Under the pieces are notes generated by a model that ran no database searches, was not told the DNA's origin, and saw only the letters and a program-made list of their open reading frames with translations. Source: a virus. From it: a stretch of 64,000 bases of DNA. A program made the position numbers and the translations under genes. Positions within the stretch are counted from its first letter, which is position 1. Each line of letters starts with the position of its first letter. Location of the stretch: the IMG/VR virus record IMGVR_UViG_3300020112_001619; one strand, given 5' to 3'. Shown one piece after another: positions 6,384 to 51,951 of the stretch.

Positions 6384-6456
6384 ATACTGGATTTTGTAGC
6401 AATTATGCATTAAAATAATAGGTACACTAAATTAGAAAGGAGTGTCCAAAACAACC

Positions 6457-8769
6457 ATGAACATTTTGAAACGTGACGGTAAAGAAATTGAATACGATGG
6501 TATTAAAATTCAAAACGCCGTCAGTAAAGCAAATAATGAAGTAACTGTTGATAAACAGTTATTGGAATCACAAATTAAAGTAATTGAAGAAAAAGTTAGA
6601 ATCAAACTTAATAATTTAGGACATACAGCTACTGTCGAAGAAATTCAGGATATGGTTATTCATGAAATTATGAGACAGCAGGCATTCGAAGTTGCCCAGG
6701 GTTATACTGAGTTCAGATTCAAACAGATGCTCAAGCGTAAAAAGAATACAACTGATGATAATATTTTATCATTAGTTGATTATGAAAACGAAGAGATCAA
6801 ACAGGAAAATTCAAACAAAAATCCTATGATTGCATCTACTCAGCGTGACTATATTGCAGGTGAAGTTAGTAAGGATATTACTTGGAGAATTTTATTACCT
6901 GAAAAGGTTAAAAAGGCACATGATGACGGTAGAATTCATTTTCACGATGCCGATTATTTCCTTCAGTATATTTACAACTGTTGCTTAATCAACCTTTTAG
7001 ATATGTTGCTTAATGGAACTGTTATTACAGAAACAGCAATCACAACACCAAAAGGAATTTTAACAACAGCCACTGTCGCTACACAAATTATTGCACAGGT
7101 AGCTTCTAATCAGTATGGTGGACAGACTTTCTCACTTGCTCATCTTGCTCCGTGGGTTGACATCTCACGTCAGAGACTTCGTGCAGAAGTTAGAGAAGAA
7201 AGAATTGAAAATGGTGATGATCTTAGTGAAGAAAAGATTAATCGTACTGCTGAACGTAGACTTAAGAAGGAAATCAGAGCTGCAATTAAGACAATTCAGT
7301 ATCAGTTAGTAACTCTTATGACTACAAATGGACAGACACCATTTGTCAGCATGTATATGCATATTGATGAGCCAACTGATCCTCAGACAAAGCATGATTT
7401 AGCTATGCTTATTGAAGAAGTATTTACTCAGAGAATCAAAGGTCTTCCAAATGAAGAAGGCGTATGGATTACACCTGCCTTTCCTAAATTGTTATATGTA
7501 CTTGATGAATCAAATACATATGAAGGTTCTGAATACTTCTATCTTACAAAGTTAGCTGCTGAATGTACAAATAAGCGTATGGTTCCTGATTATATCAGTG
7601 CAAAGAAAATGCGTGAATATACTGGTGGTGATGTATATGGCTGTATGGGTTGCAGAAGTTTCTTAACAGTAGATAGATTTGCTGATAAAGTAGGAAACAT
7701 TTCTAACTCCGGTACATTTGATATGACAAAACATCACTACTATGGTCGTTTCAACCAGGGCGTTGTTACTATTAACCTTGTAGACGCCGCTTGTGCTTCA
7801 AATGGCGATATGGATAAATTCTGGGAAATCTTAGACGATACTCTTGAAATTTGTCATATTGCACTTCAGCATAGACATAATCGTCTTAAAGGTACAACAT
7901 CAGATATTGCACCTATTCTTTGGCAGCATGGTGCTATTGCTAGACTTAAGAAAGGTGAAAAGATTGATAAACTGTTATACGACGGTTATTCAACAATTTC
8001 ATTAGGCTACGCTGGTCTTTATGAAATGTGTATGCGTATGACTGGAAAATCACACACAGATCCAGCAGCAAGACCTTTTGCACTTGCAGTAATGCAGCAT
8101 CTGAACGATAAATGTAATGAGTGGAAGAAAGCTGAAAATATCGATTATTCACTTTATGGAACTCCACTTGAAAGCACAACTTATAAGTTCGCTAAGAGTC
8201 TTCAGAAGAAATATGGTATTATCAAAGATGTAACAGATCATGGATATATTACAAACTCTTATCATGTAAATGTCCGTGAGCATATTGATGCATTTGAGAA
8301 ACTTAAATTTGAAGCTGAGTTCCAAGAACTTTCTCCAGGTGGTGCTATCAGTTATGTTGAAATTCCAAACATGAATAACAATATGGATGCACTCATCAAA
8401 ATGATTCAGTTTGTATATGAGAATATCAAATACGCTGAATTCAATTCAAAATCAGATTATTGTCACGTATGTGGATTCGATGGCGAAATTGAAATTGTTG
8501 AAGATGATGCTAAAAAGTTAATCTGGAAATGTCCTTGTTGTGGAAATACTGATCAGAATAAAATGAACGTAGCCCGCAGAACATGTGGCTATATCGGCAC
8601 ACAGTTTTGGAATCAAGGTCGAACTCAAGAAATTCGAGACAGAGTATTACATACAGACATTATGATGGTTGAACAGACAGATTTATCATCGAATGATTCA
8701 GATGAACCTGGACCAATCAATACATTTGCAATTCCTGATAATATCATTGAATCAGAAAAAACAGAATAA
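6457..8769 (+). CDS. nrdD: anaerobic ribonucleoside-triphosphate reductase (class III) NrdD
   Basis: N-terminal ATP-cone (ILKRDGKEIEYDGIKIQNAV). C-terminal zinc site CHVCG...CPCCG. Glycyl-radical motif RTCGYIG. Size of about 770 aa. Confidence 0.9.
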   Translation: MNILKRDGKEIEYDGIKIQNAVSKANNEVTVDKQLLESQIKVIEEKVRIKLNNLGHTATVEEIQDMVIHEIMRQQAFEVAQGYTEFRFKQMLKRKKNTTDDNILSLVDYENEEIKQENSNKNPMIASTQRDYIAGEVSKDITWRILLPEKVKKAHDDGRIHFHDADYFLQYIYNCCLINLLDMLLNGTVITETAITTPKGILTTATVATQIIAQVASNQYGGQTFSLAHLAPWVDISRQRLRAEVREERIENGDDLSEEKINRTAERRLKKEIRAAIKTIQYQLVTLMTTNGQTPFVSMYMHIDEPTDPQTKHDLAMLIEEVFTQRIKGLPNEEGVWITPAFPKLLYVLDESNTYEGSEYFYLTKLAAECTNKRMVPDYISAKKMREYTGGDVYGCMGCRSFLTVDRFADKVGNISNSGTFDMTKHHYYGRFNQGVVTINLVDAACASNGDMDKFWEILDDTLEICHIALQHRHNRLKGTTSDIAPILWQHGAIARLKKGEKIDKLLYDGYSTISLGYAGLYEMCMRMTGKSHTDPAARPFALAVMQHLNDKCNEWKKAENIDYSLYGTPLESTTYKFAKSLQKKYGIIKDVTDHGYITNSYHVNVREHIDAFEKLKFEAEFQELSPGGAISYVEIPNMNNNMDALIKMIQFVYENIKYAEFNSKSDYCHVCGFDGEIEIVEDDAKKLIWKCPCCGNTDQNKMNVARRTCGYIGTQFWNQGRTQEIRDRVLHTDIMMVEQTDLSSNDSDEPGPINTFAIPDNIIESEKTE

Positions 8770-8854: not shown

Positions 8855-9622
8855 ATGTCCGAATTAGATACAAAGATTGAAAAACTAAAAAGCATGATTG
8901 CTGAAGCTAATCATATAGCCTTCTTTGGAGGTGCAGGTGTTTCAACTGAAAGTGGAATACCTGACTTCAGAAGTAAAGATGGTTTGTATAATCAGCACGA
9001 TGTAAATTTTGAACAGTATAAACCAGAATATTTATTAAGTAATGAATGTTTGGTAAGACATCCAAAAGTATTCTACGAATTTTACAGACAAAAATTAGAT
9101 TGTAGAACCATTGAACCAAATATCACACATAAGAAGTTAGCAGAACTGGAACAATCAGGTAAAAGAGTGTCAATTATCACACAAAATATTGATGGATTAC
9201 ACGAAAAAGCTGGTTCAAAAGAAATATACAATATTCATGGTACAACTATGAAAAACTATTGTATGTATTGTCATCACGAATTTGATGGCAATTTCATTTT
9301 TGAATCCGATGAAGAAATACCAACATGTCCATATTGTGATCCATCAGAAACATCTGGTTTGAAAAACTATGTAAGACCTGATGTAACACTCTATGGTGAA
9401 GCATTACCTAACTCATTTGATGATGCTGTTTCTATTGTAAAACAAGCTGATCTTATGATTGTAGCAGGTACATCACTTACAGTATATCCAGCTGCTAACA
9501 TCATATCATATTTGAATGAAAATGCTTATCTTGTCATGATCAATCGTGATCCAACTGATAAAGATGGTTATGCTGATTTAGTCCTTCATTGTGGACTAGG
9601 AGAAGTATTTTCAAAATTGTAA
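8855..9622 (+). CDS. Sir2-family NAD-dependent protein deacetylase (sirtuin, CobB-like)
   Basis: GAGVSTESGIPDFRS, QNIDGLHEKAG, catalytic NIHG and the Zn tetrad CMYC...CPYC are all present. Confidence 0.85.
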   Translation: MSELDTKIEKLKSMIAEANHIAFFGGAGVSTESGIPDFRSKDGLYNQHDVNFEQYKPEYLLSNECLVRHPKVFYEFYRQKLDCRTIEPNITHKKLAELEQSGKRVSIITQNIDGLHEKAGSKEIYNIHGTTMKNYCMYCHHEFDGNFIFESDEEIPTCPYCDPSETSGLKNYVRPDVTLYGEALPNSFDDAVSIVKQADLMIVAGTSLTVYPAANIISYLNENAYLVMINRDPTDKDGYADLVLHCGLGEVFSKL

Positions 9623-17541: not shown

Positions 17542-19365
17542 ATGCCAAAAATTGCATGTACCGACCATTTAGGTAATGAATTTAAAAGTATTCAGAGTAT
17601 GTGCGATTATTGGCATATATCTCTAACAACTTATTCAAAACGAAAAAAACTTGGTTATTCTTTAGAAGATTGTTTAAATCACAAAAAATTATCAAAAGCA
17701 AAACCTGCTTTTGATCATCTAGGTAATAAATTTATATCAATAGATGCTATGTGTGATCATTATCACATTTCACGTTCAACATTTGAAAACCGCTTAGCTA
17801 GACATTGGCCATTATGTGAAGCTCTTACTAAAGAAAGATACAATAATTATTCTAAAGATAAAATATTGGATCATAAAGGTCAAGTTTTTGCTACTAAAGA
17901 TCAGTTAGCAAGTGCTTACGGTATATCAAGAATGACATTAGATGCCAGATTACGTAAAGGTATGAGTTTAGAAGAAGCTTTAACAACGCCTTTAAGAACC
18001 CACGGCTATACTGATCATTTAGGGAATTATTTTAAAAATCAGCATGAAATGGCTGAATTTTGGCATATTAATGAATCAACACTTGCTTTAAGACTTCGTA
18101 AAGGATTGTCTATAGAAAAAGCTCTTGAGGTTGTATCAATCGAAGTTACTGATCATAAGGGTATAACTTATCATTCTATGACTGCTATGTGTGATGCTTA
18201 CGAAATTTCACGATCAACAGTTGAACGAAGATTAGCTAACAGATGGTCACTTGAAGAAGCACTAACTTATCCATCCACAACACATAAAAAATTCAAAGAT
18301 CATTTAGGTAAAGAGTATAAGACTTTTGGATTAATGTGTAAAGCATGGAACATGCCAGATTCAACAGTTCAAAACAGATTATATAAGTTAGGATATTCAC
18401 TAGAAGATGCTTTAACAAAACCAACAAATACTCAAAATACAGTAGGTAAAACTTGTAAAGATCATTTAGGGAACGAATATCAATCAGTAGCAACTATGTG
18501 TTGTAATTATGGCTTACCTAGAAACGTATTTCATAGGAGAATAAAAGATAGTTGGGATTTAGAAAAAGCATTAACAACACCACCATCACGAGCAAACGGT
18601 CAAGGTAAAGTTATTTACGATCACAAAAAGAATGCTTATTCATCTGTTGGTGAAATGTGCAAAGCTTATGGAATTGATTTTGCAATGTATGGCTCCCGCA
18701 TTCGTCAAGGATGGTCATTAGAAAAAACACTCACAACGCCGCCTGAAGAAATACAAATAGGTAAAAAAGAATGTGTAGATCACAAAGGAAATCATTTTAA
18801 GTCACAAGCAGAAATGATGCGTTTTTGGGGTGTAACAAAAGATCAACTAAGATCAAGAATTGAGCTTGGCTGGACTTTAGCTGAAATCTTAGAGTCTCCT
18901 GCTCATCAAAGTCATAAAAGACCATGTGTTGACCATCTCGGTAAAAAATGGGCATCAAAAGAAGAAATGCTTGCACATTATGGTGTAAGTGGTCCAATTT
19001 TCAATCGAAGATTAAATGTTATGGGCTTATCATTAGAAGAAGCTTTAACAGGACATTCTCTTCATGCAAATCAGATGACTGATCCTTTAGGAAATTTCTT
19101 TGAATCAGTTTCTGATATGTGCGACGCTTGGGACACACCAACAGCCACATTTTACCATTGGTATAACAAATTATATCCAAACAACTTAAGAATGGCTCTC
19201 GTAAGACCAAAAACAAATTGGTCATATAAAGATGTAAAAATCATTAAAACTATTAATAAAAAGTTCTATGAGGTAATGATAAACAATCACACAGCAATAT
19301 GGACTCAAGAACAAATATGTGATTATTACATTAATAACTTTAAACCACATATCGAACCTAAATAG
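17542..19365 (+). CDS. tandem helix-turn-helix-like (NUMOD1-like) repeat protein, paralog 3 (about 11 repeats; 607 aa)
   Basis: Eleven consecutive units DH(L/K)GNxFxSxxxMCxxYxISRSTxxxRLxxGWSLEEALTxP. Distinct C-terminal domain (IWTQEQICDYY) shared with the 22763 paralog. Stop lies 10 nt upstream of the sigma factor start. Confidence 0.65.
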   Translation: MPKIACTDHLGNEFKSIQSMCDYWHISLTTYSKRKKLGYSLEDCLNHKKLSKAKPAFDHLGNKFISIDAMCDHYHISRSTFENRLARHWPLCEALTKERYNNYSKDKILDHKGQVFATKDQLASAYGISRMTLDARLRKGMSLEEALTTPLRTHGYTDHLGNYFKNQHEMAEFWHINESTLALRLRKGLSIEKALEVVSIEVTDHKGITYHSMTAMCDAYEISRSTVERRLANRWSLEEALTYPSTTHKKFKDHLGKEYKTFGLMCKAWNMPDSTVQNRLYKLGYSLEDALTKPTNTQNTVGKTCKDHLGNEYQSVATMCCNYGLPRNVFHRRIKDSWDLEKALTTPPSRANGQGKVIYDHKKNAYSSVGEMCKAYGIDFAMYGSRIRQGWSLEKTLTTPPEEIQIGKKECVDHKGNHFKSQAEMMRFWGVTKDQLRSRIELGWTLAEILESPAHQSHKRPCVDHLGKKWASKEEMLAHYGVSGPIFNRRLNVMGLSLEEALTGHSLHANQMTDPLGNFFESVSDMCDAWDTPTATFYHWYNKLYPNNLRMALVRPKTNWSYKDVKIIKTINKKFYEVMINNHTAIWTQEQICDYYINNFKPHIEPK

Positions 19366-19375
19366 GAGAAATCTT

Positions 19376-20530
19376 ATGAATACAACAACGAAAAATAAGA
19401 CAAAACAAACTAAAAATACATCATTGATTGATGATCCATTAGATTCTTCTATTTCATCATCTGATACATTAGATGAAGAACCTGAAGATGCAGACGTTGA
19501 ACCAGATATGGCTGATCTTGAAAGTATTGACGATTCACCTGATGCAGAGGCAGATGTTGCAAATTTAATAGCTTTATATGAAGCAAGCGACAAAGCATTA
19601 GATCCAGTAACACAATACTTAAGAGAAATTGGTACAATACCTCTTCTTTCAAAAGAAGATGAACAAATTTTAGGTAAACAAATAAGTGATCTAAAAGATG
19701 CAATTGCCGAACGTGATGAAATTTTAGAAAAACCTAAATTAACAAAAAAAGATGAAAAGAGATTAGAAAAGTTAAAAGTAACAATTTCAGAATGCACAAT
19801 TGCTAAAAACAAATTATGCGAATCAAATCTGAAATTAGTTGTTAGTATCGCAAAACGATATAATTTCAGATCGTTATCTGAATTTCTAGACATCATACAA
19901 GAAGGTAATTTAGGTCTTATCAAAGCAAGTGAAAAATTTGACTATACAAGAGGATTCAAATTTAGTACATATGCAACCTGGTGGATAAGACAAAGCATCA
20001 CAAGATCTATGGCTGAAACAGGAAGACTTATCAGATTACCTGTTCATATATCTGAAGATATCAATAGAATCAAAAGAGCGAAACGCAATATATTAGCCAA
20101 GACTAATAAAGAAGCTACAATTGAAGATATTGCAGCAGAAGTCAATTTACCTATTGATAAAGTAAAAGACCTTATTAGACTTGAACAGGAACCTATGTCA
20201 CTAAATATGACCGTAGGTGAAGACAATGATTCTACAGTAGGCGATTTTATACCTGATGATACATTGCAAACACCTGAAGAAAAAATGGCAGAACAAAATA
20301 TTCATGATGTGTTATTTGATGTATTCAAACAAGCAAAATTATCAGATAAAGAAATTGACATTATTTGTAGAAGAAACGGTATCGACCGACCTGATAAACA
20401 AACACTTGAAGAAATTGGCAAAGATTATAATATCACCAGAGAACGAGTGCGACAAATAGAAGCCAAAGTCGTTAAAAAATTGAGACATCCAAAATATGCA
20501 AAAATATTAAAAGAATTACTTGAACCGTAA
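19376..20530 (+). CDS. RNA polymerase sigma-70 family factor (primary-like, regions 1.2-4)
   Basis: Region 1.2 YLREIGTIPLLSKEDE. Region 2 DIIQEGNLGLIKASEKFDYTRGFKFSTYATWWIRQSI. Region 4.2 TLEEIGKDYNITRERVRQIEAKVVKKLRHP. ATG at 19376 with AGGAGA ribosome-binding site (ORF track start 19319 rejected). Confidence 0.85.
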   Translation: MNTTTKNKTKQTKNTSLIDDPLDSSISSSDTLDEEPEDADVEPDMADLESIDDSPDAEADVANLIALYEASDKALDPVTQYLREIGTIPLLSKEDEQILGKQISDLKDAIAERDEILEKPKLTKKDEKRLEKLKVTISECTIAKNKLCESNLKLVVSIAKRYNFRSLSEFLDIIQEGNLGLIKASEKFDYTRGFKFSTYATWWIRQSITRSMAETGRLIRLPVHISEDINRIKRAKRNILAKTNKEATIEDIAAEVNLPIDKVKDLIRLEQEPMSLNMTVGEDNDSTVGDFIPDDTLQTPEEKMAEQNIHDVLFDVFKQAKLSDKEIDIICRRNGIDRPDKQTLEEIGKDYNITRERVRQIEAKVVKKLRHPKYAKILKELLEP

Positions 20531-22762: not shown

Positions 22763-23905
22763 ATGACACCACATACAGCAAAACAACATGAAGACCATTT
22801 AGGTAATGTATATCCATCTTTTGCAGACATGTGTAAAGCATATAATAAACCTAGCAATACTGTAAGAAACAGACTTGATAGAAATTGGACATTAGAGCAA
22901 GCATTAACAATTGATAATAAAAATACAGCTGTTAAAGTTAAACCTATCAAAATATGGACTGATCATTTAGGTAATGAATTTCCAAGTGTTCGAGCTATGG
23001 CTGAACATTATGGGATTACTGAAAAAATATTTTGGTCAAGAAAAAGAATACTAAATTGGCCACTAGAAAAAATCTTGACAACACCAATTCAAGATATGGA
23101 CGCTCCGGCAAATGCCATACCAATTGTTTGTAATGGTATTGAATTTAAATCAGTAAATGCATTATGTAAATACTATTGTATACCAAGAACAACTTTTAAA
23201 TTAAGGTTACAACAAGGATATACACCAGATGAAGCCGTAAATATTAAACCGAAAAAAACAAAAGGTTTGGTAAAAACAAAAATAACAGATCCCTGGGGAA
23301 AAGAATTTCCATCTTTGGCTGCATTATGTAAAGAATATCATGTCACTAAAGATTTAGTGAGATCACGATTAGATTTAGGCTGGACTATGGAAAAAATTTT
23401 AACAAATCCTCAAGTCATAGATCCACACAAACCATGTATCGGACCTGACGGAAAACAATACGATGGTTTTAAAATTATGGCAGAATCTTTTGGATTATCT
23501 GAATCAACACTCAGAGGTCGATTAGCTCAAGGATATTCATTAGAAGATGCTATTTATAATTGGGAAAATAACATATTTCATCCTCAAACAGATCATCTTG
23601 GGAATAAATTTAATGCTACAGCTGATATGATGCTTTACTGGAATATTTCAAATAGTTCATATTGGGCTTATATGAAAAGACGAAATATTGTAAATCCAAC
23701 AGATAAAGATAAAGCAAAAGTATTAGACGTTATCAAGCCAAAAAAGAAATTTGCAGATATTACAATTGTAAAAAAAGTTGCAAAAAATTATTATGAGATA
23801 TGTAAAGATAATAAAAATTATATTTGGTCACATGACCAAATATGGAATTATTATCGAAGCACTATCAATATAGTATTTGAGAAAGGAGACTTATGCAATA
23901 CGTAA
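22763..23905 (+). CDS. tandem helix-turn-helix-like (NUMOD1-like) repeat protein, paralog 4 (about 7 repeats)
   Basis: Repeats DHLGNxxPSxxxMCKxYxxxxxTxxxRLxxxWTLEQALT. C-terminal NYIWSHDQIWNYY is related to the 17542 paralog. Confidence 0.6.
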   Translation: MTPHTAKQHEDHLGNVYPSFADMCKAYNKPSNTVRNRLDRNWTLEQALTIDNKNTAVKVKPIKIWTDHLGNEFPSVRAMAEHYGITEKIFWSRKRILNWPLEKILTTPIQDMDAPANAIPIVCNGIEFKSVNALCKYYCIPRTTFKLRLQQGYTPDEAVNIKPKKTKGLVKTKITDPWGKEFPSLAALCKEYHVTKDLVRSRLDLGWTMEKILTNPQVIDPHKPCIGPDGKQYDGFKIMAESFGLSESTLRGRLAQGYSLEDAIYNWENNIFHPQTDHLGNKFNATADMMLYWNISNSSYWAYMKRRNIVNPTDKDKAKVLDVIKPKKKFADITIVKKVAKNYYEICKDNKNYIWSHDQIWNYYRSTINIVFEKGDLCNT

Positions 23906-27073: not shown

Positions 27074-27180
27074 TTTAATTTATATGTTGAAAACACTTGA
27101 TTCTTATATAATTTTATAGTAAAATATATAAGTCGAAACAATAAACAACAATTTTTTAGATCAGAAAGAGGTGTATACGA

Positions 27181-27420
27181 ATGAAGAAATTCACAATCCG
27201 AATTAACACTATTGAAAGAGTTAAAGATTTTTGCCAGGAGACTTCAAAGCTTATGTGTGATGTTGATGTTATGCATGGTCACTACGTAATTGATGGTAAG
27301 TCTATTATGGGAATCTTCTCACTTGACTTATCAAAAGACCTTGAAATGGTAATTTATTCAGAGGATCCTGCTGTACTTGCACAGGTTGAAGAGAACTTCG
27401 CAAGATTTATTATTAAATAA
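27181..27420 (+). CDS. HPr/Crh-like phosphocarrier-fold protein lacking His15 but retaining the Ser46 (KSIMG) motif
   Basis: Aligns along its length with HPr/Crh: FTIRINT ~ VEVRLKT; DGKSIMGIFSLD ~ NAKSIMGLMSLA; EDPAVLAQVEENF ~ EDEQEALEKLAAYV. The His15 position is not His. Confidence 0.6.
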   Translation: MKKFTIRINTIERVKDFCQETSKLMCDVDVMHGHYVIDGKSIMGIFSLDLSKDLEMVIYSEDPAVLAQVEENFARFIIK

Positions 27421-27447: not shown

Positions 27448-27762
27448 ATGGATAGTTTAGATCGCATCAAGACTCGTGTAAAACGAGCACTCATATGGAA
27501 TGAAGATAATTGTCGAGACGACGACAAAATACTATATTATATGGTCTGCAGAGATATTTGTTCTGAAGGTGACGTTGAAATAGACTCACTTACATTTAAA
27601 GATGTTATGTATTCAGAAACAATCAGATTTCCATCTATGGAATCTGTTAGACGTTGCAGACAAAAATTGCAAGAAGAAGAACCATCTCTAAGAGGTGCAA
27701 AATATCGTGTACGTAAAAAAGAATTAGAGACGGTTTATAGAGAAACTTTTAAGAAAGATTAA
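27448..27762 (+). CDS. hypothetical protein
   Basis: ORF with ribosome-binding site. Confidence 0.4.
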   Translation: MDSLDRIKTRVKRALIWNEDNCRDDDKILYYMVCRDICSEGDVEIDSLTFKDVMYSETIRFPSMESVRRCRQKLQEEEPSLRGAKYRVRKKELETVYRETFKKD

Positions 27763-27770
27763 TGTATGTA

Positions 27771-27804
27771 AGGCCTATTCAAATATTTTGAATAGGCTTT
27801 TTTG
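27771..27804 (+). terminator. rho-independent terminator
   Basis: AGGCCTATTC...GAATAGGC followed by TTTTTT. Confidence 0.7.
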
Positions 27805-28037: not shown

Positions 28038-29417
28038 ATGATTGAACCATTAGCTTCTATGATGCGACCACAAACTTTAGACGAAGTATTTGGTCAAGAA
28101 CACATTTTATCTTCTGGCAGATTGCTTAGAAGAATGATTGAGGCCGACATATTGTCATCAATTATTTTGTATGGTCCACCAGGTACCGGTAAAACTACAA
28201 TTGCTACAATAATTGCTAACACAACTAATTGTGAATTTGAAGCAATTAATGCAACAACAGCTGGCAAAGCTGATATGGTAAAAATAACGGACAAAGCAAT
28301 CAAAAATCTAAAAGAGAACAATAAACGAACAATTATGTTCATCGATGAAATACATAGATTCAACAAAGCACAGCAGGATTATCTATTACCATTTGTCGAA
28401 AAAGGTATCGTTATTCTCATTGGTGCTACAACCGAAAATCCATATTTTGAAATTAATGGTGCATTGTTATCAAGATCTAAGATTTTTGAATTACATCCAT
28501 TGGACAAATCAGCTATGAGCCAAATTATAGACAGAGCAATTTTGAAACTAAACATAGAAGCAAAAAATATAAATATTGCTTATGATATTGTATTAACACC
28601 AGATGCCAAAGATTTCTTTATCAATATTGCAGATGGTGATGCAAGACAGATTTTAAATGCTCTCGATCTAGCATACCAAACAACTGAATATGATGACGCC
28701 GGTATTATGACGATCAACTTAGAAGTTGCTGAAGAATGTATTCAGAAAAAAATCAAACAATATGATAAAAATGGTGACAACCATTATGATTCTATATCAG
28801 CATATATTGAATCTATCAAACATTCTGAAGTAGACGCAGCACTTTACTATTTGGCAAGAATGCTCGATAGAGGTGAAGATCCGAAATATATAGCACGACA
28901 ATTAATTAAGATTGCATCAAGAGATATTGGAACTGCTGATCCATATGCTTTAACATTATGCGTGAGCACATTTTTAGCAGTAGAACGAGTAGGTATGCCT
29001 GACTGTAAATTCGGTCTTGCTGAAGCCACTGTTTATACATCACTCGTTCCAAAATCTAACACAGTAACATCTGCGTTAGAACTTGCAATGGAAGATGCTT
29101 CAAATCTATCTAACATTGAGATACCAACAACTCTTAAAGATGAATCTTACAAATCAGCATGGAAATTAGGTCACGGTGGCGTATCTGATGTATTTGCATC
29201 ACCTATTAATTACGATGGCTTTGAATGTATGCCTGAAGATTTAGTAGGTAAACGATACTATTATCCAAGTGATTTAGGTAAAGAAATCGACATGAAAAAG
29301 TACAATGATTGGAGATTAAAAGTAAAAGATGCTGTTAATCAATATATCAGCGAACATCCTGAAGATTTAATCCCACAATCACCGAACAGACCGATTAATC
29401 CAAATACACAAAAATAA
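28038..29417 (+). CDS. rarA: RarA/MgsA AAA+ ATPase, copy 2 (diverged paralog of 10329..11609)
   Basis: MRPQTLDEVFGQEHILSSGRLLRRMI...LYGPPGTGKTT, IMFIDEIHRFNKAQQD, and C-terminal YDKNGDNHYDSISAYIESIKHSEVDAALYYLARM. Confidence 0.85.
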   Translation: MIEPLASMMRPQTLDEVFGQEHILSSGRLLRRMIEADILSSIILYGPPGTGKTTIATIIANTTNCEFEAINATTAGKADMVKITDKAIKNLKENNKRTIMFIDEIHRFNKAQQDYLLPFVEKGIVILIGATTENPYFEINGALLSRSKIFELHPLDKSAMSQIIDRAILKLNIEAKNINIAYDIVLTPDAKDFFINIADGDARQILNALDLAYQTTEYDDAGIMTINLEVAEECIQKKIKQYDKNGDNHYDSISAYIESIKHSEVDAALYYLARMLDRGEDPKYIARQLIKIASRDIGTADPYALTLCVSTFLAVERVGMPDCKFGLAEATVYTSLVPKSNTVTSALELAMEDASNLSNIEIPTTLKDESYKSAWKLGHGGVSDVFASPINYDGFECMPEDLVGKRYYYPSDLGKEIDMKKYNDWRLKVKDAVNQYISEHPEDLIPQSPNRPINPNTQK

Positions 29418-39750: not shown

Positions 39751-40124
39751 GGGCTTGCAAAGGTTTCGACTGGGTATTATAAGTATCTCAAGCATGTAGA
39801 GGATGATGGACACCTCTTAAATCCGACATCAAAGAATAATCGCTAACGATTATGAAGAGCTCTGCGCAGCCTAGTAGCGCCAGCTAGTGTAAACTAGCCG
39901 TCAACTCATATGAGTATCACCGCTGTATCTCATATGGGCAATAGTAGCGGTTAAGCGATGAGTGAACTGAGATGGAACTCACCGACGAAAACTCCGGCGT
40001 CTTAGTGTGTGTATAGAAGCGTGTTGGTTTGCTAATTACAGGCACTATAAAGGGATAACCAAATAAACATGTAGAAAAAGATATGGAGATATTTAGGACA
40101 GGGGTTCGACTCCCCTCAGGTCCA
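39751..40124 (+). ncRNA. ssrA: tmRNA (SsrA), standard one-piece form; predicted tag peptide ANDYEELCAA
   Basis: 5' GGGCUUG-CAAAG-GUUUCGACUGGG matches the tmRNA 5' consensus. The 3' T-arm AGGGGTTCGACTCCCCT plus CAGGTCC pairs 7/7 with the 5' GGGCTTG (two G-U pairs). Tag reading frame is GCT AAC GAT TAT GAA GAG CTC TGC GCA GCC TAG TAG at 39842-39877, preceded by AATAATC as in the E. coli AAUAGUC resume context. Confidence 0.8.
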
Positions 40125-40216
40125 CTAGCCAAAGTAATTTGGTGAACAATTTTATAAAGTCCATAAGGTCTTTATAGATACTTATGGCATATCCCCCCCC
40201 AATAGAGACAAATATT

Positions 40217-46826: not shown

Positions 46827-49607
46827 ATGAGGATAAAAAAATTAGAACATAATGAAAAAACATATGATGATCTAAGACCATATATTCTAAGAAAAGAAAA
46901 TTGTTGCGTTGTAAATCCTTGTGGTTCAGGAAAAAGCACAATTATAGCTTCCATCATTGAAGAATTTTATGAATTAGGTATTATTGTCATCACAAAACAA
47001 GCAAATGCAAAAGCTTATTATTACGAAAAATGCCCAATATTCGAACAACAGAATATACCAGTTATAACATACAATAGATTACATGATCTATATAAAAAAG
47101 ATAAATTAAAGAGCTTGAAAAACATCAAAATCTGTATTTTTGATGAAGCTCATTATATAGGAGCAAATAGTTGGTATGATTCTGTTACTGAATTATTAAA
47201 AATAACAGAAGCTACAGCAATCGGTGTTACAGCAACACCACAACGATACGAAGATCAAGGATCAGATCGATCAATTATTGATTTCTTTTCAGGTAATTCT
47301 GTAGGAAATTATACAGCAAAAGACCTTCAGAGAAAAGGTGTATTTATTGAGCCTGAGTACATTATTACATTGGCATCACTTGATACTGAAATCAATAAAC
47401 GAATTGATAAACTGAATGAAATAGATGATCTTACGGATAAAGAACGTGAAACTTATATAAGTCGATTAAATGAATTACAGGATAACTGGGCTGAAAAAGA
47501 ATGTCCTAAAGTAGTTATGTCAAAAGTATTAGATGATTACATGTATAGACCAAATGGAAATAAAATACTTGTATTTTCTAAAAATATTGAAGCAATTGCT
47601 AAAGACATGAAATATGTTAAAGATATTCTTGAATCAATATATCCTGACAAAAAGATTGGACTATATGAATACACTCATTTTAGCAGCGAATCTGTCTTAC
47701 AAGAATTTTTAACAAATGATACTAACTATATCAACGTTATATTTTCTGTTAATAAAATCTGTGAAACAATTCATATTCCAGATCTAAACGTACTAATATT
47801 TTTAAGAAGTTCTTATTCAAACAGGATCATTACACAACAGGCTGGCCGAGTTAATGATATTAATAATCCATACAAAAGTTTAATTCTCGATATGGTAGAC
47901 AATTTATCAAAATTTGGCAAAAAGAATAATCTTGATTCATTAGAAAATATTCAGAAAACTGTTAAAAAAGAACAGCAAGAAAATAAAACAACTGTACGAT
48001 TAAATCTATCTTATATGTATGGTTCTATTGGGTTGTTTAATAAAATTGACAGTTTAACAAAAAAATATCAGCTATATGATTATATGGGTGCAACAGGTAC
48101 AATCACTCAGTTATGTACTATTTTCAGAAAAGACAAAGATGAAGTTATGAAACTGATCAAAGATAATCAGTTATCAGTGTATGATGCATTAGACACTGTA
48201 CCTAGTCAAAGAAAATGGTCAAATGATATGTTAAATGATGATTCATATGATTTACTTACAAATATGGATTATACATTAACACCTGAAGATAACGAATTAG
48301 TCGAAAAATTTTACCCATACATTCAAGATATTGCAAAAACAAAAAATTGTACAGATGAAGATATTATTGGAAATGCTGCATTATATCTATGTAATATTGC
48401 ACATAAATACAATACTGAAAACATAACAACAAGTCAAAACATGTATTTCAGAAACAGTATTGCTAATTTCATAGTGAGATCTATGCGAAAAATGTATGAT
48501 CATAATGATATGATAGAAGATTCACTATCAGATGTCGTATCATCTGGCGAGTATGTATCAAAATATGCTGAACTTTCGGAATTAAAAGATATCATATTTG
48601 AATTATTAAATACTTTAACTGAAAAAGAACATCGTGTTATTGCTATGAGATTTAATATCTATGGTAATGGACCACAATCATTATTCAGTGCAGGACGTAT
48701 ACTTGGTGATGTATCTAGAGAACGAATAAGACAAATAGAAGCAAAAGCTATACGAAAATTACGACATCCTAGTAGATCAAGAAAATTAAAAGGTTTCTTA
48801 AATGGCGAAGAATTATCAGAAATTGAACCATATACTTATCTAACATATATAGGATCAGAAAATTTACCTGAAGCAAATGCTGAAGTATTCAGATGGATTA
48901 ATGAACATATCAATATGGCTATTTTGAAATACGGTCCTAATTATAAAGAAGAGTTTACCATCGTTCAAAAATCTGATACAAAATGTGAACCTGTTACAGA
49001 AAAAGAGTCAGTAGAATCTTTAAACAAACGCTTAAATAAAGTAGTTCTTAAAACTGCTGAAAAAAGAGTTGGTATTCGTATTAATAGACCAGTTAAATAC
49101 GACAAAATCACAATAAAAAAGTATCGAGGTGATCAATATCAAATTGGAAAGACACAAGCAATTGACAACATACAGTCTGTTACAACATATGAATACATTG
49201 ACGCTATTGACGCCACAGTTGCTTCAACATTATCAAATCTGCTGAATAACAATGAGAATCCTTTCTGGATTCATGACGCATTATTCAAACCTTTTGAAGA
49301 TGTAAAATATAAACATATCTTACATCCTGCTGTAAAAGAGATTTTAAAACAAAATCAAATAATTTCACCTGCATTCTTAATAACAAAGACAAGAGATGAA
49401 ATTCACGAATTATTAACAGTAGGTGCAAGACTTAAAGCGGCTCAATGCTACAAAGTAGATGCTTTATTATCAGATGATGATATTTGGTTTATGAAAAACT
49501 TCGGTGAAATCATAAAAATATTAGAAGGAAGCGTTGAAACATTAGAAGCAATCAAAAGAGAAGCATTATCACTTTTATATGATCAAAACATCGAAATTGT
49601 TTGTTAG
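46827..49607 (+). CDS. fusion protein: SF2 helicase-like N-terminal domain plus sigma-70 region 2/region 4 domains plus about 290-aa unknown C-terminal extension
   Basis: Helicase motifs [26 protein letters not shown] are paralogous to the 1996 protein. Sigma region 2-like [18 protein letters not shown]...[17 protein letters not shown]. Region 4.2 [53 protein letters not shown] nearly matches the RpoD consensus. Confidence 0.7.
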
Positions 49608-51066: not shown

Positions 51067-51951
51067 ATGGCAACAAAAGGTGATGAATACACACAACACA
51101 CTCTAAGGGAAATTATGAATTATGGATTTTTAGATGTAAATCCTAGACCTAAATACCCTGATGGAACGCCTGCACATACATTAAGTGTAAATCACAAAAT
51201 GTTTCAATATAATCTGCAGGAACACGAAAGTCCAATGTTAACATTAAGACCAATAGCGTGGAAATCAGCAATTAAAGAAATACTTTGGATTTATCAAATG
51301 CAGAGTAATTCACTTGATGATCTCCACAAACTAGATATTAAATATTGGGATCAGTGGGATATTGGAAACGGCACTATCGGATGTCGATATGGTGCAACTG
51401 TAAAAAAACACAACTTAATAAATAAATTGTTAGATGGTTTAAAAAATGATCCATTTGGACGACGTCACATTATGTGTATGTGGCAAGAAGATGATTTTCA
51501 TGATGCTACTGGAGGAACTGATAAAGGGTTAAACCCATGTTGTTATGAAACAATATGGAACGTAAGAAAAGTCCCACACAACCATGTGGAAGGACAAGAT
51601 ACAATCTATTTAGATATGCTTATGAATCAGAGAAGTTCAGACTATGCTGTATCAAATTCAATTAATGAAATTCAATACATTGCATTACTTTTAATGGTTG
51701 CAAAACATTGTGGTTTTGAACCAGGCGTGTTTACTCATATATCTGAAAATGTTCAAATTTATAACAGACACACAGAGCAAGCTGAAATTCTTTGTAAGAG
51801 AACACCGTTGGGATCAAATCCATATCTTGTATTAGACACAGATAAAACTAATTTCTTTGATTTTGATATCACAGATTTTAAAATGATGGATTTTAACTTA
51901 GGTGAAGTAAAAGCACATAACCCTCAGTTAACTTTTGATTTAGGCGTTTAA
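51067..51951 (+). CDS. thymidylate synthase (ThyA) family enzyme, diverged; dUMP-type Asn retained
   Basis: RRHIMCMWQ (R-R...W), NPCC (nucleophile Cys region), QRSSDYAVSNSINEIQY aligning to QRSCDVFLGLPFNIASY with the Asn conserved. The GLPF and DTHLY regions are diverged. Confidence 0.7.
   Translation: MATKGDEYTQHTLREIMNYGFLDVNPRPKYPDGTPAHTLSVNHKMFQYNLQEHESPMLTLRPIAWKSAIKEILWIYQMQSNSLDDLHKLDIKYWDQWDIGNGTIGCRYGATVKKHNLINKLLDGLKNDPFGRRHIMCMWQEDDFHDATGGTDKGLNPCCYETIWNVRKVPHNHVEGQDTIYLDMLMNQRSSDYAVSNSINEIQYIALLLMVAKHCGFEPGVFTHISENVQIYNRHTEQAEILCKRTPLGSNPYLVLDTDKTNFFDFDITDFKMMDFNLGEVKAHNPQLTFDLGV

Follow-up and report, generated by a model that had tools for sequence, protein, structure and literature searches.

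The virus record IMGVR_UViG_3300020112_001619 of IMG/VR was analyzed as one stretch of 64,000 nucleotides (hereafter the window), which encodes at positions 27181 to 27420 a protein of 79 amino acids related to HPr of the phosphoenolpyruvate-dependent sugar phosphotransferase system (PTS). In Firmicutes, carbon control centers on HPr and its phosphorylation on serine. Judged by its sequence, the window protein is a member of a distinct short (76–83 amino acids), histidine-less HPr-like family, called mini-HPr here, which keeps the regulatory serine. The gene is not peculiar to phages; it is a copy from a large host family that is already annotated in generic terms. We propose that the phage carries a copy of a host regulatory protein, which would act as a serine-regulated signal relay without PTS phosphate transfer, a reading whose chances we judge to be evenly balanced. 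The features that carry the argument are as follows:

27181..27420 (stop included), + strand: coding sequence of the 79-residue histidine-less short HPr-like protein, with an ATG start at 27181
27199..27219, + strand: codons 7–13 (R-I-N-T-I-E-R), the shortened β1-α1 loop and the start of helix 1, replacing T-A-D-S-G-I-H-A-R-P of HPr with three residues fewer, no His and no equivalent of Arg17
27298..27312, + strand: codons 40–44 (K-S-I-M-G), in which Ser41 (27301–27303) is the equivalent of HPr Ser46

The HPr fold of the window protein

The similarity of the window protein to HPr far exceeds chance. At 24.9 bits (E-value 2.1e-5), it lies narrowly above the gathering score of the Pfam PTS-HPr model (PF00381), which is 23. 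Twenty-four homologues were aligned (A1), and this alignment served for both the AlphaFold2 model and hhalign. In hhalign, the A1 family profile was compared with HPr and Crh of Bacillus subtilis, each of which matches its own NCBIfam equivalog above the cut-off. This comparison gave a probability of 97.4% and an E-value of 9e-12, with residues 1–79 set against HPr 3–84. The window protein aligns with HPr and Crh without gaps at an offset of five residues, such that residues 17–76 correspond to HPr 22–81.

The AlphaFold2 model (mean predicted local distance difference test score 94.4, predicted template modeling score 0.82) shows the window protein to have the HPr fold, as its predicted elements follow the HPr topology (β 2–6, α 11–22, β 27–32, β 35–38, α 42–46, β 54–59, and α 63–72). 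When searched with Foldseek against the PDB, ranks 1–39 are all HPr or Crh, with template modeling (TM) scores of 0.57–0.77, and the first unrelated protein appears at rank 41 with an E-value of 0.4. The matches include HPr from the complex with the kinase/phosphorylase HprK/P (1kkl), as well as HPr and Crh from CcpA complexes (1rzr, 2fep, 1zvv). The end-to-end match to the PTS phosphocarrier fold, which a preliminary description made from the letters of this DNA had claimed, is thus borne out by profile comparison, model and fold search. The unrelated ferredoxin-like fold that it had named as the alternative is ruled out, since every strong PDB match is an HPr or a Crh.

A shortened loop without the histidine

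No histidine is present in residues 1–31 of the window protein. In the hhalign alignment, M1..R13 lie opposite HPr Q3..H15, which places R13 at His15, and A16-R17-P18 of HPr are then deleted. The model points to another placement: because helix 1 is predicted to begin at residue 11 and the offset of five is ungapped from residue 17, Thr10 would be the N-cap equivalent of His15, and three residues would be deleted from the β1-α1 loop. Position 10 is Thr or Ser in 80% of the viral and 99% of the bacterial copies, position 12 is mostly Asp, Glu or Asn in the family, and position 15 is Lys. The position of Arg17 is taken by Glu12 in the window protein or is deleted, and it holds Asp, Glu or Asn across the family. 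Under either alignment, the G-x-H-A-R-P segment is gone and not merely substituted. The preliminary description, in which His15 was held to be replaced by Glu or Arg, was right that no His is present and that R13 stands opposite His15 in hhalign, but the loop itself is shorter by three residues. With His15 absent, the loop three residues shorter and Arg17 absent, the window protein as predicted cannot serve as a PTS phosphocarrier.

Conservation of the serine face

HPr Ser46 is the target of HprK/P. In the window protein, K40-S41-I42-M43-G44 aligns without gaps with K45-S46-I47-M48-G49 of HPr. Conservation was assessed in distinct homologues, 52 of them viral and 86 bacterial, in which Ser41 is conserved in 100% and Lys40 in 96–100%, and I42, M43 and G44 are each found in at least 90%. 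Asp38 (94–100%), Tyr35 (94–100%) and Phe17 (90–100%) are conserved in the same set. The viral copies share a mean mutual identity of only 40%, and no member of the set exceeds 53% identity to the window protein. Since the motif is kept despite this divergence, the comparison indicates strong purifying selection on the serine/helix-2 face. The claim that the Ser46 site is retained is upheld, and its context is not lost in homologues.

The conserved patch takes in helix 2 and the beginning of helix 1 along with the β3 strand and the serine, and the consensus from the serine region through helix 2 (S-G-R-Y-V-I-D-A-K-S-I-M-G-I-F-S-L-D-L-S-K) is almost invariant in viral and bacterial copies alike. 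This is the surface that HPr is known to use for all of its partners (compare the complexes among the PDB matches). Two residues set the window protein apart, namely His34 in place of the family's Arg and Tyr59 in place of the His of the bacterial copies. Codon 59 (27355–27357) differs systematically between hosts and phages, as it encodes His in 96% of bacterial and 42% of viral copies.

A short HPr-like family in Clostridia

A search of 5.8 billion proteins returned 454 clusters (90% identity) at an E-value of 1e-3 or lower, nearly all of 76–83 amino acids, in which the best matches of the window protein have 47–63% identity and E-values down to 2e-18. An exhaustive search of representatives at 50% identity gave 2063 at or below 1e-3, a number whose weak tail may include ordinary HPr, and 134 at or below 1e-10. 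Among the representatives listed, the serine is kept in 149 of 149 and the His motif occurs in none. The family signature is K15, F17, D29, G33, Y35, I37, D38, S41-I-M-G44, and F46-S-L-D-L50, and the window protein agrees with A1 at each of its 16 invariant columns. Against the NCBIfam models, it scores 22.9 bits for Crh (NF010354, cut-off 123), 21.8 for HPr (NF010352, cut-off 110) and 19 for TIGR01003 (cut-off 47.9), and the bacterial members and the protein of phage PMBT24 score similarly. No curated model covers the short family, and PHROGs contains no family for the window protein. Likewise, the PDB contains no solved structure of a member (best profile score 32 bits). Members are named “HPr family phosphocarrier protein” in the databases.

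In bacteria, a scan of one genome per species with a stringent pattern found at least 600 stretches, of which at least 575 were confirmed, such that at least 575 species genomes of Clostridia carry the gene. The taxa named here are those of the best 80 of these, and they include Lachnospiraceae, Blautia, Oscillospiraceae/Ruminococcaceae, Ruminiclostridium, Hungatella, Thermoanaerobacterium and Caldanaerobacter, among others. In 65 of the 80 loci a single synteny recurs, with genes for DUF1292, RuvX, IreB and MtaB (a MiaB/MtaB-type radical-SAM protein) on one side of mini-HPr and for ThiI, NifS (class-V aminotransferase), RsmE and PrmA on the other. In these loci, mini-HPr sits alone on its strand, with its neighbors on the opposite one. 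Because so many loci share one housekeeping synteny, the bacterial mini-HPr is a vertically inherited core gene and not prophage cargo.

Extra copies stand in sugar operons. In Blautia, an extra copy follows genes for a solute-binding protein, two permeases and a MalK-type ATPase with a gap of 2 nucleotides, and it is followed by a GH32 fructosidase gene. In a metagenome-assembled genome of Oscillospiraceae, the order is GH32, PfkB kinase and an overlapping mini-HPr, and a third sugar locus has LacI, a solute-binding protein, two permeases, a MalK-type ATPase and mini-HPr (the three sugar loci are L123 1823–7554, L119 33–2273 and L007 2510–8231). As to function, the only hint from gene context comes from these operons and points towards carbohydrate utilization. 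Tandem pairs of mini-HPr occur in 7 of the 80 species genomes (L093, L095, L100, L116, L130, L151 and L161; also L001 7650–8231), and one representative (P0123, 157 amino acids) is a fused two-domain mini-HPr. The tandem and fused copies hint that mini-HPr may act as a dimer or pair.

Copies in phages

Relatives of the gene are encoded by at least 117 IMG/VR contigs, many of 100–390 kb, and by 9 GenBank phage records, including six cultured phages of Enterocloster bolteae. The viral loci do not show the bacterial housekeeping synteny. Taken together with the bacterial distribution, these sequences show a putatively host-derived gene that was captured repeatedly by large gut phages. The commonest viral neighbors belong to deoxynucleoside triphosphate (dNTP) synthesis, with thymidylate synthase at +1 in 32 loci, followed by dihydrofolate reductase (DHFR), dUTPase, NrdD, and guanylate kinase/NT5C, although many of these loci come from closely related phages, so that the counts overstate the number of independent events. 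In many of the viral loci L012–L091, mini-HPr lies inside a dNTP-synthesis cluster (for example L075 6226–7128, L048 7129–8139, L066 5036–5584, L023 8718–11072). A conserved partner gene beside the phage copy was looked for and not found, and the downstream open reading frames (ORFs) of PMBT24 and of the window are unrelated.

The literature that could be searched, on PMBT24, phage HPr, PTS evolution, auxiliary metabolic genes and Crh/HprK in Clostridia, yielded no paper on the short family, be it on the phosphorylation or partners of its members or on their occurrence in phages, and none on a phage HPr. The sequences themselves are already in the databases; they point to an apparently unstudied, putatively regulatory core gene of gut Clostridia that has been copied by phages.

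Proposed role and alternatives

In the proposed relay, the serine/helix-2 face would serve as a docking surface, as it does in HPr, and the HprK/P of the host would phosphorylate and dephosphorylate Ser41 according to the energy and carbon state of the cell. The protein would then pass this state to a partner, which may be the ATPase of an ABC importer for sugars or else a transcription factor, and CcpA would not be required. With expression from a metabolic region of early or middle timing, the phage copy would supplement the signal of the host mini-HPr, compete with it or override it, and carbon and energy metabolism would thereby be biased towards phage replication. In Faecalibacterium prausnitzii (Oscillospiraceae), HPrK phosphorylates Ser46 of a regulatory HPr (HPr2), and seryl-phosphorylated HPr2 is not bound by the CcpA-like protein and acts with the DeoR-type regulator FruR (PMC11906611). 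Ser41 is a candidate target of HprK/P because the KSIMG context is characteristic of HprK/P substrates and because HPrK acts on a regulatory HPr in this species.

Several points weigh against the relay. Phosphorylation of a family member was not found reported, either from experiment or in a phosphoproteome. Helix 1 begins with A-R-P-A in all known substrates of HprK/P, among them Crh (compare the 1KKL/1KKM complex), and since this segment is absent here, recognition of the window protein by HprK/P is not assured. K-S-I-M-G is also the N-terminus of helix 2 and could be conserved for folding or binding without phosphorylation. Nothing on function can be read from the main bacterial synteny, a housekeeping locus whose genes lie on the opposite strand, and the sugar-operon contexts amount to 3 loci only. 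In other phages, the gene sits among those for ThyA, DHFR, dUTPase and NrdD, not among genes of carbon metabolism. Finally, no gene for HprK/P or another PTS component was found among the 30 window ORFs scanned.

The alternative that survives best, which we nevertheless regard as unlikely, is a phosphorylation-independent binder, in which the unphosphorylated protein would modulate an enzyme or transporter and the serine would serve for helix capping and the interface only. Precedents are unphosphorylated Crh with methylglyoxal synthase, and Escherichia coli HPr with glycogen phosphorylase and Rsd; control of the methylglyoxal bypass by Crh is reported by Landmann (2011, cited in PMC11906611). 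HPr-fold proteins bind many partners by the same face, as complexes of glycogen phosphorylase with HPr (9s8k) and of Rsd with HPr (4xwj) are among the fold matches, and some bacterial copies lie directly after the gene for a MalK-type ATPase or PfkB kinase. On the other hand, the exact K-S-I-M-G is typical of organisms with HprK/P, and E. coli HPr has a different sequence around this serine. Moreover, the residue is Ser in 100%, and never a mix of Ser, Thr and Ala, across very divergent copies, which suggests chemistry at this position.

Less probable again is a decoy, whose helix-2 face would bind HprK/P or another HPr partner and titrate it from the real HPr, shifting the level of P-Ser-HPr and relieving or locking catabolite control with no signal of its own. 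The protein diverges outside its HPr-like docking face, which is conserved, the phage copy comes on top of the host's own, and a small, abundant, early protein, as this one may be, would suit titration. However, the same constraints act on the bacterial core copies, for which a decoy role is unlikely, and this argues for an ancestral function of another kind.

An action through CcpA, which the preliminary description had favored, appears improbable to a further degree. As a Crh orthologue, the phage protein would be phosphorylated by HprK/P and become a CcpA co-repressor, mimicking P-Ser-HPr and imposing or distorting catabolite repression. The lack of His15 combined with the exact KSIMG is the functional logic of Crh, the fold matches the Crh and HPr chains of CcpA complexes (1zvv, 1rzr, 2fep), and the hosts are Firmicutes. 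Yet the window protein fails the Crh equivalog model and scores no closer to Crh than to HPr, and A-R-P is deleted, with Glu here, and an acidic residue or Asn in the family, at the position of Arg17. Arg17 is reported to take part in CcpA signal processing (Horstmann et al. 2007, cited in PMC4591507). Because this position is acidic and because F. prausnitzii HPr2 works with FruR and its seryl-phosphorylated form is not bound by the CcpA-like protein (PMC11906611), a co-repressor role is rather doubtful, and so is the claim that a P-Ser-HPr mimic rewires the host via CcpA.

A genuine PTS phosphocarrier that shuttles phosphate from Enzyme I to Enzyme IIA, as the annotation in PMBT24, the passed Pfam gathering score and the database names would imply, is barely conceivable and was rejected, since residues 1–31 contain no His, G-x-H-A-R-P is absent in all family members inspected, and the cut-offs of TIGR01003 and NF010352 are failed.

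Beyond the serine-regulated relay itself, a wider proposal can be put forward more tentatively, as we think it possible though improbable. The short histidine-less HPr-like proteins may constitute a separate, unrecognized branch of HprK/P signaling in Clostridia, a dedicated serine messenger with a partner of its own (the ATPase of a sugar ABC importer or a regulator other than CcpA), which large gut phages would have captured many times to steer host carbon and energy signaling during their own dNTP synthesis. If this is true, a second messenger, one without the histidine and core in the Lachnospiraceae and Oscillospiraceae, which are dominant in the human gut and rumen, would alter the picture of catabolite control there, the CcpA paradigm of which already seems not to hold for F. 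prausnitzii. It would also be the first virus-encoded component of PTS-type regulation. The presence of the gene, with its serine face intact, in more than 100 phage genomes suggests manipulation of this signal by phages; for PTS-type regulation, no host takeover of this form is known. Even if the family were only a structural relic, its description would be useful, as it would correct the wrong name “phosphocarrier protein HPr” in the databases.

Transcription unit and surroundings in the window

The sites and genes adjacent to the HPr-like gene are as follows:

27097..27125, + strand: promoter-like TTGATT, 17 nucleotides, TAAAAT, within the 107-nucleotide gap upstream of the gene; weak
27165..27173, + strand: Shine-Dalgarno-like AAAGAGGTG, read from the sequence, 7 nucleotides before the ATG
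27448..27762, + strand: downstream ORF of 104 amino acids, after a gap of 27 nucleotides with no terminator in between
27770..27800, + strand: terminator-like hairpin with a 14-bp stem, followed by a T-run
28038–29417, + strand: RarA/MgsA-type AAA+ ATPase (MgsA_C, AAA_assoc_2, AAA), 600 nucleotides downstream of the HPr-like gene

Shuffles of this AT-rich region would lead one to expect 9.6 promoter-like sites, and the 11 observed are no enrichment over that, whereas terminator-like hairpins number 2 against 0.3 expected. Because the only such hairpin nearby comes after the second ORF, the HPr-like gene and the 104-residue ORF probably form one transcription unit that ends at 27770–27800. None of the four small ORFs that flank the HPr-like gene, the 104-residue ORF included, has a Pfam match, and no homologue of them was found near the gene in 160 other loci, so that the linkage with the 104-residue ORF is not conserved. 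A spurious ORF with a chance motif is ruled out by the ribosome-binding site, the hundreds of homologues, the high-confidence fold and the invariant motif. The nearby “MgsA” was considered as a methylglyoxal synthase, which would be a Crh partner, and this too is ruled out by its domains, which are those of a RarA-type AAA+ ATPase; the RarA-type MgsA and the methylglyoxal synthase MgsA share a name only, and the link to Crh is a coincidence.

The window is a phage region of 31% G+C with its genes on one strand. Profile scans found NrdD, a clamp loader, helicases and sigma-like proteins, as well as a non-specific endonuclease, the RarA/MgsA-type ATPase, a PIF1 helicase, LysM and SPFH proteins; a phage lysozyme, RNase H, thymidylate synthase and Sir2 are also encoded. 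The window is a phage module for replication and nucleotide metabolism, in which ThyA (51067–51951) and NrdD (6442–8769) each lie about 20 kb from the HPr-like gene. The clamp loader is 58–64% identical to that of uncultured human-faecal phages and 51% to that of Bacillus phage G, which supports well a host in the Clostridia, and alongside this no DNA-level match to known phages was found for the 20 kb of the window compared. The host is very probably a Firmicute of the class Clostridia. That the gene is phage-borne and its host a Firmicute, both stated in the preliminary description, agrees with the one-strand phage module and its nearest relatives, and with the relatives of the gene in Clostridia and in phages of Clostridia. 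Other features of the window include the following:

8855–9622, + strand: Sir2-family protein (PF02146, E-value 1e-56), adjoining the NrdD gene
17542–19365 and 22763–23905, + strand: two paralogous ORFs with several repeated stretches, matching phrog_1065 and an HNH-endonuclease PHROG
19319–20530, + strand: separate sigma-like ORF of 403 amino acids
24868–25974, + strand: DNA/RNA non-specific endonuclease (PF13930) with a hydrophobic, lipoprotein-like N-terminus (…LLVGC…)
39751–40127, + strand: full-length transfer-messenger RNA gene (Rfam RF00023, 146.7 bits against a gathering score of 47; ARAGORN tag ANDYEELCAA)
46827–49607, + strand: ORF of 926 amino acids with a helicase region (phrog_16) and a sigma-factor-like region (phrog_351)

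The N-terminus of the endonuclease suggests that it may be secreted or membrane-anchored. Candidate roles of the Sir2-family protein are those of a nicotinamide adenine dinucleotide-dependent deacetylase, or a role related to defence or counter-defence. The transfer-messenger RNA is phage-encoded, and its tag peptide is unusual.

Comparison with known systems

Crh of Bacillus (NF010354; PDB 1k1c, 1mo1, 1zvv) resembles the window protein in its HPr fold, its lack of His15, its K-S-I-M-G with Ser46 and its lack of a role in PTS transport. In contrast to the window protein, with 79 amino acids, the three-residue deletion and Glu at the position of Arg17, Crh has 85 amino acids and a full loop with Gln15-Ala-Arg17-Pro. 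B. subtilis Crh scores 165.2 bits with the Crh model. With its 22.9 bits, the missing A-R-P-A segment and this Glu, the window protein is not a member of the Crh family, so that the Crh arrangement assigned to it in the preliminary description does not hold at family level, and Crh orthology was rejected on the failed score. Crh ranges over Bacillus, whereas the short family is found in Clostridia and their phages, and this difference in range argues for an independent histidine-less lineage.

HPr itself (PtsH; NF010352, TIGR01003; PDB 1kkl, 2hpr, 1ptf, 3le1) shares the fold and an identical KSIMG with the window protein, which lacks His15 and Arg17 and has a shorter loop and C-terminal helix. 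The regulatory HPr paralogue of gut Clostridia, HPr2 of F. prausnitzii, keeps His15 and is of normal length, unlike the window protein, and no connection between mini-HPr and FruR was found.

Among phage proteins, the “phosphocarrier protein HPR” of PMBT24 (WDQ45469.1) is of the same short histidine-less family, with 43% identity over 97% of the length. PMBT24 belongs to another phage lineage, with no DNA similarity to the window and different neighbors of the gene, which the PMBT24 paper does not mention. Homologues are also present in phages CB457P1/P2 and CB473P1–P3, which are phages of Clostridia. Two viral entries of BFVD/UniProt have the same fold, A0A8S5S213 (“PTS HPr component phosphorylation site”, Siphoviridae sp. 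ctCIv11), with a TM score of 0.89 and 30% identity, and A0A8S5S9E0 (“HPr domain-containing protein”). These are automatic annotations of metagenomic phages, and one related entry is mis-named “Catabolite control protein A”. The label “phosphocarrier” is likewise wrong for the histidine-less family, since the histidine that it implies is missing. As far as its residues can tell, the functional logic of the window protein is Crh-like, in that the transport histidine is lost and the regulatory serine kept, in a protein that is outside Crh and all curated HPr families.

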